Assembly (NCBI GenBank): GCA_963764725.1
Contig: CAVXTM010000011.1
Coordinates: 160,001-224,000, forward strand
From: an uncultured Gammaproteobacteria bacterium
GTDB lineage: Bacteria; Pseudomonadota; Gammaproteobacteria; JACCXJ01
DNA length: 64,000 nt
Direction: 5' to 3'
Positions 17,448 to 21,077 of the stretch are shown here, one piece after another. Within the stretch, counting starts at the first letter, position 1; the number at the start of each line of letters is the position of its first letter. The position numbers were made by a program, and so were the translations under genes. The notes under the pieces are model-generated. The model saw only the letters and a program-made list of their open reading frames with translations. It was not told the origin of the DNA and did not search any database.

Positions 17448-18518
17448 TATGCACGACCTGCCGCGCGGAGAAAGCATGGGTGGCACAGGATGTCTAGAGC
17501 TATTCTCGCAGTTGTAGCTGGTGTTGTGATTGGTGGGTTTTGCGTGGAGCGAACCCTCGCGCAAGGCCAGCTTGTCTTGTTTACCGTGGAAGAAGCCAAG
17601 CGCCTGCGTCACACCGACCGAGAATGGAACGCCTCTGCGGAAATCCTGGAGTTTAGTCCCTTATCCATGAAATCTTGTGCAAAAAAGCAAAGAGTGTCAT
17701 GCATGAGCGGTATTGAGAGCAGGCATGACTACATACTCCCGGATAGCGAGTGCGGTGCTGAGCACACGACGACCGAATGTCGTGAGGTAGTACTTGTAGC
17801 GATGTCCAATCTTTTTGATGAGGCCATGGGTGCGCAAGCGTTTCAACCAGTAGGAGGCACGGCCGGTGGAGAGATCCCGGAGATGGGCTCGGAGATCGGA
17901 GGCGCGAAAGCCGCTGATGTTCCACTCCCCGCGGGCGAGGGTAATAAAAAGGCTATGATCTTCACCGAGGAAGAGATTGAAGCCCCGATAGGAGCGGTCT
18001 TTCTCTCGTACAGGTTTGGCCATTTTGTCGATGGCGTGCAGAGCTGCATTGGGGTTATCGATGCTGGCCATGAAGCTGAGATAGCGTTCATTGGCAGCAT
18101 GCATCAGCTCTCGCAGATCGGGGAGGCTATAGATGTTTTTTCGCAGGGGTGCGAGTTTGAATTGCTTGCGCCCATTGCGTTGTTCCACCCAACGGTGGTG
18201 TTTGAAGAAGGAGACATCGTTGGCGGTGCATTCCACCCGAGCCATGAGACTGAATTTATCGTAGAGCTTGAGGCTTGCTGGTCCCATATGATGGCGGATG
18301 CGTGTACCCTGAATGCGGGTGTGAAAATCGTTACCGGCCTCCCCGCTGAAGGCCGAGGTGAGTTTGCGTCCCAAGAAGGTGGCGACGTGTTCTGCCTTGA
18401 GGGCATGCACGGCGGTACGCACGATGGCTTGATAGAGGGGTTGGAAATCGGCTTGGCGGTGGAAGATGACATCGGTCGAGAAAGCCAGGGCCAGGGAGTG
18501 GCCCTGCTTGGCGCGCCG

Positions 18519-19676
18519 AGCAACTGTCTTAAAAGTCAAGCATTTTCAGGTGTACTTTGTGCCCAGGGAGTATTGGTCTTGAGCATGGCATTTAGAATAG
18601 TCAGCAACTTTCTCATGCACGCGGTCAAGGCGACCTTTGGGGGCTTGCCGGCTGAGCATAGGCGCGTGTAGAAGGCGCGAATGACCGCATTGAAACGCAC
18701 AGCCACGAAGGTCGCCATGTATAGCACCGAACGCACTTGTGCGCGTCCTCCCCAGACACGGCGCTTGCCCTGGAGAGTGCCACTATCGCAGTTGAAGGGG
18801 GCCACACCCACCAACGCGGCGATCTCCCGCCGACTCAGCTTCCCCAGCTCGGGCAAAGCAACCAAGAGAGTGCTGGAGGTGACCTGCCCTATACCGGGGA
18901 CAGTTTGGAGCAATTGGTCTTTAACGAGCCAGAGGGGACTTTCTTTGATCCGGCGAGTGGTTTGTTCATCGATATCCTTGAGCTGCTTTTTCAGCCAAGC
19001 GATATGGTGGGCGATTCCTTTGCGTGTATGGGGCGAGGCCATGGACAAGCGATTTTGCTCGGCGGTGACCATATCCAAGAGCTGGCGACGCCGGGTAATG
19101 AGCGCTTCGAGCGCCTGTAGATCGGCGTCTTTTATGGGCCGTGCAGCCGGACGTATCACCTCAGCGAAGTGGGCCAGCACATTAGCATCCAGCGTGTCGG
19201 TCTTGGCAAGCTGTCCTGTGGCTTTAGCAAAGTCGCGTACTTGGCGTGGATTGACGACCGCCACAGCGAAGCTTGCTGCGGCTAGGGCGGCCACTGAAGG
19301 GGTTTCAAAACCGCCGGTGGCTTCGAGGACGATGAGGAGGGGGGACAGTCCTCTCATCTCAGCGACTAACGCCACAATACCCGTTTCATCATTGGTAAAG
19401 CGCAGCCTCCTCCCCAGAGGACGAACCGCTATATCCAATATGGCCTTAGAAACATCGATACCGACCACGACTGAAATTTTTTCGTTCATAGCATTCCTCC
19501 GTTACCCAACCTTGCAACAATACGGGCTCTTAACGCCCAAGCAACTGTTCGGGTTGATTCAGAGAAGGACGTGGCGACTCCTGCTCGGCGGCGGGATCAG
19601 AGTCCCAAGGACGCAACGGTCTACCACGTCCATTACAAACAACGAAATAATAAAAATCCATAAAAAGAAGTACAAG
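18519..19676 (-). mobile_element. IS110-family (IS621-like) element; recombinase 18536-19489
   Basis: GIDVSK, LEATG, KTDTLDA, DSG motifs; CT core at both ends; long non-coding left end. Confidence 0.95.
19500..19635 (-). ncRNA. Predicted IS110 bridge RNA (target- and donor-binding loops)
   Basis: Guide segments TTGCGTCCT, CCGCCGAG, ACAGTTGCT and TGCAAG inside stem-loops match the target flanks and element ends. Confidence 0.8.
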
Positions 19677-21077
19677 GATGCAACTCCACCTGCATGAAGC
19701 TCCAGTGATAACCAGCGCGAAACTGACCCAAGATAGGACAGAAGCTTTTCGCCCATCGGTCCAAACGCCGATGCAAGCCTTTGGGATCGAGGCTATCGGC
19801 AAGCGCCTGAGCCTGTTGGGGATCGCCGATGGACAAGAAGGCATTATCGGCGCGCTCAAAGGCGATCCCTGTCTTGGTCAGTCGTTGGGCTAACCAGTGA
19901 TGGCCGTTCAAATAGACCTGCAGGCGAAACGGTGCCCAGGTGGGTACTCGGACATAACAGAGCCCGAAGATCTCATCGATGAAATAGAAGTAATAATGCA
20001 AACACTTGCCCGGGGTAGACTTCAAACGGGTCGTATGCTGAAGCTTGTCATGCCAGGGGCGATACGAAGGACAGGCCTCCATCGCCGAGAAGATATGCAC
20101 CAGCCCCGGGTGCTCACCGCGCAAAGCCAAAATCGCTTTGATCCGTTCTTCTTTACGAAACGCCTTGTAATGGCGGATGAATTCAATTTCCAACGAAGCC
20201 TCAGCGGCCAGCCGCTCGGCATGGGTCCGAAGCGCCTCGCGCAGCGGTTCCGCCCAGCGGGGGTAGTCAAACAGACGCATACCCCGGACACCCAAATATC
20301 GGGCCATGGCCTCGGCATGGGCGATCTCCGGAAGCGTGCCAGTGATCACGATGCGGTCAAAGCAACAAAGCACCGCGGCGATCTTCTCTTGATGGTGTTC
20401 GACAAAGGAGTTCATGGCGACGACCCATCTCAGTTCTTATTGCCCATCCGCCAGAATAGTACATTCAACACCTTGGTTCCGGCTTATGCCGGGTTAGGGG
20501 ATTAGCACACGGTCCCCGAATCTCCGTTAAGGCTCCGCGGGTTGAGAGCACAGCCGCTGGTGGCGTGATTCAAATGCGAACCCCAGGAGATCTTTGGGTG
20601 GAGTTCGAACAGGTTGGTGCGCCGGTGAACATGCATACTCTCGCGGTGCAGGCGCGTCGGGGGATGTTTTCAAAATCTCTCACCGATGTGTTCGAACCTT
20701 ATATTCAGGGCACGCGTTTGCGTGCGGAAAACGTGGAGCTACCAAGCGGTGCTTTCTCATCGAGATCAGCATCGCCGATGTCAATGGCACAGTGACTGTC
20801 GAGACCTATCGGTTGCAGGTCGATCCGAGCTGAACAGCATGCGAAAGCACCGTGCCCTGGCCAAGAGCCCAAGGTATGTTTTGCGGTTTTCTCTCGTCGA
20901 ACCGAAAGCTAGACTATAGCGAGACTTCGGCGAGCAAGTCTGTGTCTTGGTTACGCACCAATTCTAGCAGCTTGTCCTTGATGGGGTCAGATAAAGTTGC
21001 TATGCCTGTTAAATCGACCACCTCTTCGAAGGCCGGTGTACCGGAGAGTGCGGTGCTCTGAAGCTCTATAAACCCTG

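Follow-up and report, generated by a model that had tools for sequence, protein, structure and literature searches.

The stretch of DNA analysed here (64,000 nt, hereafter the window), from the genome of an uncultured gammaproteobacterium (4.2 Mb in 19 contigs, 97% complete; referred to as G000), contains two copies of a very small repeated sequence, the mini-element, whose members very probably constitute a genuine mobile family. Copy 1 lies on the plus strand and is split: its first 38 nt (AGCCAGGGCCAGGGAGTGGCCCTGCTTGGCGCGCCGAG; nhmmer E = 1.5e-9) occupy positions 18483..18520 and its last five, GATGC, positions 19677..19681, with an insertion sequence (IS) of the IS110 family, 1156 bp long and on the minus strand (18521..19676), in between. 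The copy consists of the tag AGCC, the hairpin AGGGCCA-GGGAG-TGGCCCT and a tail running to ...GCGCGCCGAG, and is flanked by the dinucleotide AA on both its left (18481..18482, plus strand) and its right (19682..19683, plus strand), where empty paralogues have a single AA. The surrounding sequence, host 1, is an IS-like 1.65-kb repeat on the minus strand (17653..20499) with ends CCTAACCC...GGGACTAA, which is broken here by the mini-element and the IS110 element into segments 17653-18482 and 19684-20499 (a further host-1 segment is L002:1869-3431), so that three mobile layers are nested at one locus. The unbroken 43-nt form of copy 1 is present in eight intact copies of host 1. Copy 2 (47990..48031, plus strand, 42 nt; E = 8.4e-11) belongs to a sub-type ending GGATGG, is flanked by AG on both sides (47988-89 and 48032-33), and lies within the open reading frames of host 2, an IS5-family element on the plus strand (47071..48255) whose empty copy matches DDE_Tnp_1, DUF772 and the NCBIfam IS5 family transposase. 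The original prediction, made from the sequence of the window, had placed two look-alike inserts at these sites, and the window sequence bears this out; its location for copy 2 was correct, but its string lacked one C (the true sequence reads ...GGCGCCCTGAGGATGG) and ended one base early.

The clearest evidence of insertion comes from the comparison of filled and empty sites, in which the left and right flanks of each copy were searched across the genome. Six repeat families include both filled and empty copies, which differ by exactly the element plus 2 bp; wherever a copy is empty, its left and right flanks share exactly 2 bp. Host 1 is filled in eight copies in addition to the window copy with the IS110 element, and empty in three (9/12 filled); the IS5 element is filled in four copies and empty in three, and an IS91-family element is filled in three and empty in three. 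A 150-bp palindromic repeat contains two sites, of which site B is filled in three copies (one with a long form of the mini-element) and empty in six, while site A is filled in one and empty in eight, a long form also occurring at site A; one further repeat family has two filled copies and one empty. At the protein level, excision of the element with one flanking dinucleotide restores QVE|FSTD in host 1, as had been predicted, and the 15-residue insert LHPRRAKQGHSLALA is missing from all five aligned homologues of the host-1 protein (~505 aa), which are uninterrupted and read ...QVE-F/Y-ATDV... at this point. The finding that would have spoken against mobility, namely that uninterrupted homologues contain the same sequence, was therefore not made, and the five homologues also do not uphold a reading of the empty paralogues as deletion derivatives. 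At one copy located in unique sequence, contigs of two cave metagenomes pass over precisely 45 and 44 nt, although this is weak evidence since the shorter sides of these alignments are just 31 and 26 nt. Among the sequencing runs listed, none contained more than 0.16 of the sampled words and none was an RNA dataset.

Across this genome and its relatives the element is dispersed over 44 site clusters, a tally in which row L078 (Lachnospiraceae) is spurious and row L151 was mis-parsed, and which draws in part on loci of unpublished genomes (G001, G002, G005, G007-G010, G012 and G014), which also form part of the 14/14, 10/14, 7/14 and 15/15 tallies given below. A profile built from the first copies identifies 29 short copies in G000 at E<1e-5 (nhmmer), plus weaker partial matches, and about six long or variant copies are also present (five of ~82 nt detected with a profile of the longer copies, and one further variant); copies beyond the first two thus exist, and the family is real. 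A degenerate 22-nt tail motif gives 24 matches in the same genome, while its reversed control gives none across all 41 genomes searched.

The short form measures 41-44 nt and comprises the 4-nt tag AGCC, a hairpin of 6-7 bp and a conserved 19-nt tail (...CTGCTTGGCGCSCYGAGGATGS). In an alignment of 58 distinct short copies, none of them from unpublished genomes, the tag, the outer hairpin pairs and the tail sequence GGCGC.C.GAGGATG are invariant or nearly so. The tag is AGCC in 51/58 copies. The absence of a repetitive extragenic palindrome (REP) tag, noted in the original prediction, is correct in so far as neither GTAG nor CGTC is present, but a REP-like layout does exist, the hairpin being immediately preceded on its 5' side by the conserved AGCC. 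There is no complementarity between the two ends, AGCCAGG on the 5' side and GAGGATGS on the 3' side, which supports the earlier description of a tiny element without terminal inverted repeats. The hairpin displays 28 cells changed on both sides, compared to 9.8 +/- 2.0 in shuffled alignments (0/500 as high), and 90.6% of cells are paired compared to no more than 63% when the partner is slid. The compensatory G-C to C-G change seen between the two window copies is real and recurs throughout the 58 copies, in which pair 8-21 is GC in 31, CG in 20 and GU in 3, and pair 9-20 is CG in 44, AU in 7 and UA in 1. A second helix considered for the tail (CTTGG/CCGAG) was dropped, as it includes no pair with changes on both sides.

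In the long form (~82 nt), some 40 nt are added within the hairpin loop as three extra small hairpins, giving a four-helix cloverleaf with loops of 2-4 nt: P1, the outer hairpin; P2, GCTCG/CGAGC; P3, GCCAGCC-GAA-GGCTGGC; and P4, GCC-GAA-GGC. Nine public sequences contain four pairs changed on both sides (1.4 +/- 0.9 in shuffles, 8/500 as high). In an alignment of 48 covariance-model matches, which is model-fitted and rests partly on unpublished genomes, 13/20 pairs are changed on both sides (5.9 +/- 1.3 in shuffles, 0/500 as high), all four helices covary, and 89.6% of cells are paired compared to at most 43% when slid. Only the termini and the helices are conserved across forms, the inner part being variable; a 58-nt variant on contig C9 (G000:C9:93632, plus strand) combines the family termini with a different inner hairpin, CCCCGC-GAAA-GCGGGG, and hence only the ends are shared by the family as a whole. 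At five orthologous sites a long or intermediate-length form in one genome is matched by a short form in another, indicating that the forms interconvert or replace each other. Nested copies are found at several loci, where a mini-element lies within the P3 loop of a long form (GCGAA|GC); the nested copies at L047/L228, L218 and L240, and most type-II long forms, come from unpublished genomes. Two other resemblances were considered and rejected. A hammerhead-like CUGANGA motif is confined to one sub-type and is not conserved, and the similarity of the tail TTGGCGCGCC to the reverse complement of the 3' end of tRNA-Arg is regarded as a coincidence, as true tRNA-Arg genes have no such hairpin downstream. 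One truncated mini-element reduced to the hairpin (L020:1768-1935, contig C5) is followed by 73 AT-rich bases, beyond which the opposite strand carries the 3' half of tRNA-Arg(TCG), and the locus looks like the edge of an integrated island.

Host 1 is represented by 12 copies in the flank test; it has a single open reading frame of ~505 aa and ends CCTAACCCGGCATAGCCGG...GGGACTAA with CTAA at both borders and no terminal inverted repeats. Its protein has no Pfam or NCBIfam match, and it can therefore be called a transposase only from its IS-like behaviour; of the two transposase genes originally proposed, that of host 2 is of the IS5 family, but the host-1 protein is of no known family. At least 7940 homologues, typically of 505 aa, were found, mostly on contigs of about 1.6-2.4 kb, and host 1 may represent an unclassified IS family. 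Some sources label proteins of this type 'MarR family transcriptional regulator'. In G000 the protein match is interrupted around residue 354-369 in most copies and, where it picks up again, includes one TGA; the C-terminal quarter may contain a frameshift or use an alternative frame. Contig C16 has a copy that reads through.

It had been proposed that the mini-element inactivates other mobile elements, and for host 1 this is unsupported. The insertion of 43+2 = 45 nt is in frame, adds 15 aa and leaves the frame open through the insert in the eight unbroken copies. Moreover, the full-length copies bearing the insert are 99.2-99.8% identical to one another while the three empty copies are 93.5-96.4% identical to them, so it is the insert-bearing lineage that has expanded. 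In host 2 the insertion measures 44 nt and is located 22 codons beyond VEHPF, so that roughly the final 30 codons, past this catalytic region, are read in a shifted frame. The four insert-bearing IS5 copies are 90-98% alike and lie in different places, and have thus spread after insertion, in cis or in trans. The mini-element is antisense to the host gene in host 1 and sense in IS5.

Other landing places include the transposase gene of the IS91-family element, cas1 open reading frames, the 150-bp palindromic repeat, a repeat of the type CCCTCTCCC...GGGAGAGGG, unique intergenic DNA and the loop of the element itself. The IS91-family element (~2.5 kb, six copies; L005:6914-9074, contig C10) encodes a Y2 transposase and a tyrosine recombinase and has the right end ...CTTGAAC; the best match of the recombinase is to the 'integron integrase' subfamily, at 179 bits against a curated cut-off of 265. 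In two cas1 genes (L010:697-1725 on contig C1, and L017 on contig C8) the mini-element forms the last ~22 codons, and a long form is present at the same place in a related metagenome-assembled genome (MAG; L105). The self-complementary repeat of ~150 bp, with termini GCTTGTGAA.AAATC...GATTTTTTCACAAGC, occurs at G000:C15:262240-262395 and some 20 further locations; it resembles a MITE or REPIN (a miniature inverted-repeat transposable element or a REP doublet) and is the commonest host of the mini-element, with symmetric sites in both arms.

The family is lineage-restricted. The tail motif was detected in 14/14 genomes of the same family, which represent three genera, and in 0/26 genomes of other families of the same class. 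Among 185,579 species genomes at least 105 stretches contain the motif, and most of those listed are in MAGs labelled Gammaproteobacteria or Chromatiales bacterium, including 'USCg_Taylor' and cave MAGs. Matches in Streptomyces, Synechococcus, Halomonas, Paraburkholderia and others have no 5' half and are chance matches. Two true copies, both on short contigs, also come from MAGs labelled Acidobacteria (L098) and Candidatus Methylomirabilales (L063), but these are probably binning errors rather than a wider distribution.

Counting one representative for each of the 44 site clusters, the target is G at position -3 (37/44), A at -2 (38/44), A at -1 (38/44), A at +1 (42/44), A at +2 (30/44, with G in 10), C at +3 (25/44), G at +4 (34/44) and C at +5 (25/44). 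The empty target G-AA-CGC is thus non-palindromic, the orientation of the element relative to it is constant, and insertion follows G-A-A, yet the preference continues in the 3' direction (CGC). The flanks are mostly AA/AA, which is the sole commonest state in 26/45 site clusters, and GA/AA, AA/AG, GA/AG and AG/AG are also seen. The original prediction spoke of 2-bp target duplications, and the flanks do overlap by 2 bp at all empty sites; that this is a duplication is uncertain, as the flanks are often unequal and are nearly always A-rich. With a non-palindromic, oriented target and frequently unequal flanks, the repeat may instead be a crossover or cleavage dinucleotide shared by both partners rather than the product of fill-in. 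The target resembles the GAAC of IS91-type elements, but the mini-element splits inside GAAC and not beside it, and this candidate was rejected.

The mini-element carries no gene and must therefore move in trans, as was originally proposed. The mobility, structure, target and distribution described above are taken as shown, while the class of the enzyme and the strand chemistry are inferred. The best explanation as a whole, to which we give a probability of roughly 0.55, joins this mobile family to an enzyme that acts on the folded mini-element with strand exchange at AA. Such an enzyme, encoded elsewhere, would recognise the hairpin or the cloverleaf, either of them extruded from a single strand or a cruciform, would cut or exchange strands at the AA on each side, and would join the element seamlessly into a target bearing the same dinucleotide, the 2-bp 'duplication' then being the shared cleavage or crossover dinucleotide. 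The small size, the tag and hairpin, the cloverleaf, the lack of inverted repeats and the seamless oriented insertion argue against a symmetric DDE transposase and for an enzyme working on folded DNA. The cloverleaf as modelled looks like a closed four-way junction, and a duplex of only 43 bp would, we reason, be too short for bending. For a folded-DNA mechanism outside the DDE class, stated in those terms, we would give about even odds, and the assignment to an HUH Y1 enzyme specifically is tentative and rather doubtful.

Several observations weigh against the proposal of a folded substrate or against particular versions of it. Single-sequence folding energies are no better than those of shuffled sequences (z -1.3 to +0.4), so that the case for the structure lies in covariation, and G.T and A.C mismatches in the hairpin have no strand preference (8 vs 12); neither test separates a DNA from an RNA fold or picks a strand. 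The IS5 and IS91 insertions are flanked by AG/AG, although their empty paralogues have AA, which each model explains only with an added assumption, either a pre-existing variant target in both or the repair of a mismatched crossover. The preference for CGC at +3 to +5, on the 3' side of the insertion point, is not predicted by an HUH model with a purely 5' target, and the AGCC tag, lacking a T, could not pair with AA at the cleavage site under the guide scheme of IS608 or REP. There is also no bias between leading and lagging strand (11 vs 8 independent copies by the sign of the local GC skew, a comparison of low power with weak skew at several sites). As to the enzyme, no gene was found between 5' and 3' halves lying 100 nt to 10 kb apart in G000, and none was found flanked by the motif. 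Y1_Tnp genes have six matches in this genome and are present in 15/15 family genomes, but 34 Y1_Tnp loci (97.8 kb from 15 genomes, with flanks of ~1.5 kb and many short contigs) contain no full mini-element, only a single partial match, which is no more than the background density. The integron-integrase-like partner in the IS91 element was found in only 7/14 family genomes at E<=1e-40, a count weakened by MAG incompleteness, and was rejected.

Other candidate mobilisers were also rejected. No link to the REP-associated tyrosine transposases (RAYT) was found, a full copy being absent from all 34 Y1_Tnp loci scanned. The only serine recombinase match in G000 is partial (Resolvase, in an open frame of 110 aa). 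IS110-family genes have 14 matches of at least five types, but three mapped multi-copy types and the window element have ends unlike those of the mini-element, and the targets of the mapped types differ too. The host-1 protein is found in only 10/14 family genomes, plus one outgroup, a count likewise weakened by MAG incompleteness, and the ends of the IS91 element are unlike the mini-element. The window itself contains a Y1_Tnp gene of the IS200/RAYT-like type (11051-11374, plus strand; E=4.3e-11, open frame of 175 aa) with low-copy repeats on both sides.

The main rival to a folded substrate is a conservative, site-specific recombination of duplex DNA that uses a 2-bp core and is catalysed in trans by an IS607-type serine transposase or an RNA-guided recombinase of the IS110 type. 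In this scheme the element, its ends joined (...GATGS-AA-AGCC...), would recombine with the look-alike target G-AA-CGC, AA being the crossover present in both partners. This would account for the identical dinucleotides to left and right, the lack of inverted repeats, the fixed orientation and the non-palindromic target; the hypothetical end junction resembles the target, the two having S-AA-NGC in common, and flanks of AA/AG or GA/AA would be expected from a mismatched core after replication. The abundance of IS110 genes in the genome also fits. However, a duplex circle of 45 bp is, we reason, physically implausible, the single partial Resolvase match comes from a genome that is 97% complete, the mapped IS110 ends are unlike the mini-element with no gene between its halves, and the roughly six informative target positions are far fewer than a bridge RNA specifies, so we regard this rival as unlikely. 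Staggered cuts and repair by a DDE enzyme acting on a MITE-like derivative, giving a true 2-bp duplication, would explain why all six families have one copy of the dinucleotide in empty sites and two in filled ones, and why AA/AA prevails among the site clusters. Such an origin is nonetheless distinctly improbable: the conserved ends are asymmetric and are not inverted repeats, the target logo is non-palindromic and coupled to orientation, the flanks differ in many copies, a length of 41-44 bp is far below the size of MITEs, and G000 contains no related full-length element.

It might also be supposed that the element is not mobile now, having entered a few repeats long ago and been spread passively by its hosts while gene conversion kept the copies alike. 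Part of the data does trace to few events (nine host-1 copies, four IS5 copies, and 34/102 flank pairs in a single repeat-family cluster), and the long/short differences at five orthologous sites could reflect conversion or deletion in place. Yet about 40 unrelated sites remain, unique intergenic sites and nested self-insertions among them, an identical 43-mer is shared by host 1 and an unrelated repeat, and the sequence is nearly unchanged across three genera, making passive spread alone very unlikely. We give least credence of all to retro-transposition of an RNA copy, or to a functional RNA or protein-binding site whose mobility is secondary. The compensatory changes of the cloverleaf, its GAA or GNRA-like loops and the frequent change of a flanking A to G would suit an RNA, but eight long-form loci have no Rfam match at E<=1 and no Rfam family matches the element in the window at gathering score, copies occur in both orientations relative to host genes, the wobble pairs are without strand preference, and no poly-A, promoter or terminator feature was seen.

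The IS110-family element within copy 1 uses the mini-element tail as a specific landing site. Its transposase gene (18536-19489, minus strand) encodes the Pfam domains DEDD_Tnp_IS110 and Transposase_20, scores 226 bits against the NCBIfam model 'IS110 family RNA-guided transposase' (cut-off 140), and is accompanied by a non-coding left end of 187 nt (19490-19676); together with the absence of inverted repeats and site-specific insertion, the 1156-bp element has the marks of its family. One full copy is present in G000, and relatives of 82-96% identity in 12/14 other family genomes (the scans for copies, relatives and junctions used 18521-19678, two bases past the true end at 19676). The identical left junction ...GGCGCGCCGAG|CAACTG occurs in seven distinct mini-element copies, both short and long; besides G000 itself, their sources are a named public MAG and three unpublished genomes, the last accounting for 5/7 junctions (L165, L169, L176, L178 and L188); one more distant relative (68% identity) sits elsewhere. 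The junction dinucleotide AG is common to target and IS110 element and reads CT on the element's own strand, CT being the 2-nt core of IS621. Within the non-coding left end, the 7-mer CGCCGAG repeats the target sequence that ends at the insertion point, and 11 nt match the joined ends, although the CGCCGAG match is only suggestive since we estimate that about 1.2 seven-mer matches would be expected by chance. That IS110-family elements target repeats is already known (PMC11208160, PMC1525189 and PMC12288879), and what is new in this layer is the target, a mini-element. Another small repeat, CCCCTCTCCC...GGGTGAGGGG (L012:1620-1660; G000:C18 74209, C18 199671, C9 87723 and C10 250376), reaches a very high depth in cave metagenomes. 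A different IS110-family element, with four copies and the right junction ...GCTCTCCCGG|gagggagaggg, apparently uses this repeat as a landing site, and the mini-element has entered it as well.

Compared with known systems, the mini-element works most like REP/REPIN sequences but lacks defining features of REP, MITE and attC alike. REP sequences, mobilised by RAYT (HUH Y1), are likewise 20-45 nt long, high-copy, lineage-specific and non-autonomous; they too are without terminal inverted repeats and have a conserved 4-nt tag that abuts a GC-rich hairpin on its 5' side, and PMC1525189, PMC12288879 and PMC11208160 describe them as landing sites of IS110-family elements too. REP transposases need the 4-nt tag 5' of the hairpin and cleave at a dinucleotide on either side, according to the relevant passages of PMC8266576 and the discussion of REPINs in PMC3116915. 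In contrast, the mini-element has the tag AGCC, a conserved 19-nt 3' tail and a cloverleaf long form, does not occur in inverted doublets, has clean filled and empty alleles with AA on both sides, and lies inside genes and IS as well; neither the GTAG/CGTC tag nor a Y1 gene flanked by copies, which define a REP and its REPtron, was found. Elements of the IS200/IS605 type show leading/lagging strand bias, of which the low-powered GC-skew comparison gave no sign here. They also have hairpins near both ends and insert 3' of a fixed target of 4-5 nt, with no duplication. The short mini-element has one hairpin; its insertion after G-A-A would fit a 5' target, but its preference reaches to the 3' side (CGC) as well. 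The closest working analogies are the 'peel and paste' of HUH Y1 enzymes (RAYT/REP, IS200/IS605) and the reaction in which integron integrases exchange single strands of folded attC sites.

The attC sites of integrons resemble the mini-element in being folded single-strand substrates exchanged at one point in the triplet G|TT (AA|C on the other strand), and an integron-integrase-like recombinase is present here, although below the curated cut-off and not in all family genomes. Integron insertion at degenerate secondary sites does occur. The mini-element differs in lacking, as judged by eye, the R''/R' pairing (RYYYAAC...GTTRRRY), in a junction that would read T-TT instead of G-TT, and in its length of 43 nt against 57-141 nt. 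MITEs (Correia/NEMIS, ERIC, RU-1/2/3) are also small non-autonomous insertions with short flanking direct repeats that sometimes lie in genes, but at ~80 to several hundred bp they derive from a recognisable DDE element and have terminal inverted repeats; neither inverted repeats nor a parent autonomous element was found for the mini-element in G000, its relatives having been covered less than exhaustively. Cyanobacterial small dispersed repeats (SDR; 'very small mobile repeated elements'), reportedly described by Elhai et al. in 2008, are mobile repeats of a few tens of nt that can be nested in other repeats, have conserved secondary structure and are not known to have an enzyme; both sequence and host phylum differ. 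The bridge-RNA elements of the IS110 family (IS621, ISPpu9, ISPpu10) compare with the window element in their DEDD domain, non-coding left end and insertion at an exact position in a multi-copy small repeat, and differ in that the target here is a mini-element and not a classical REP, and in that the predicted guide matches are only k-mers.

We found no description of the mini-element in the literature searched or in a word search of one preprint on these cave bacteria; the searches covered main texts, and repeat tables may stand in supplements. To our knowledge clear before/after alleles are rare for very small bacterial repeats, the act of REP insertion has hardly ever been seen, and we know of nothing that explains the movement of so small a DNA. 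With dozens of exact junctions, a defined target, two covarying size classes and self-nesting, the movement of a 43-nt element becomes directly testable. The mini-element may belong to a new class of ultra-small mobile DNA moved by its folded shape and an AA crossover, by an enzyme not yet tied to transposition, and serving as a dedicated landing pad for IS110, but we put this forward as a possibility that is rather unlikely in full; for a mechanism of movement that is new in itself we see a fair chance, though one well short of even. Its insertions are tolerable in frame within an actively spreading IS-like gene, and as a natural, conserved, multi-copy target of IS110 it is relevant to the question of how RNA-guided recombinases locate safe places to land. 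The host lineage, which by its labels is related to the uncultured Gammaproteobacteria of the 'USC-gamma' type from caves and soils, is of ecological interest, and its mobile DNA goes unmentioned in the one genome preprint that was word-searched.

At gathering score the Rfam families detected in the window were limited to a tRNA (8171-8260, plus strand) and a c-di-GMP-I riboswitch (37973-38064, plus strand; 73 bits).

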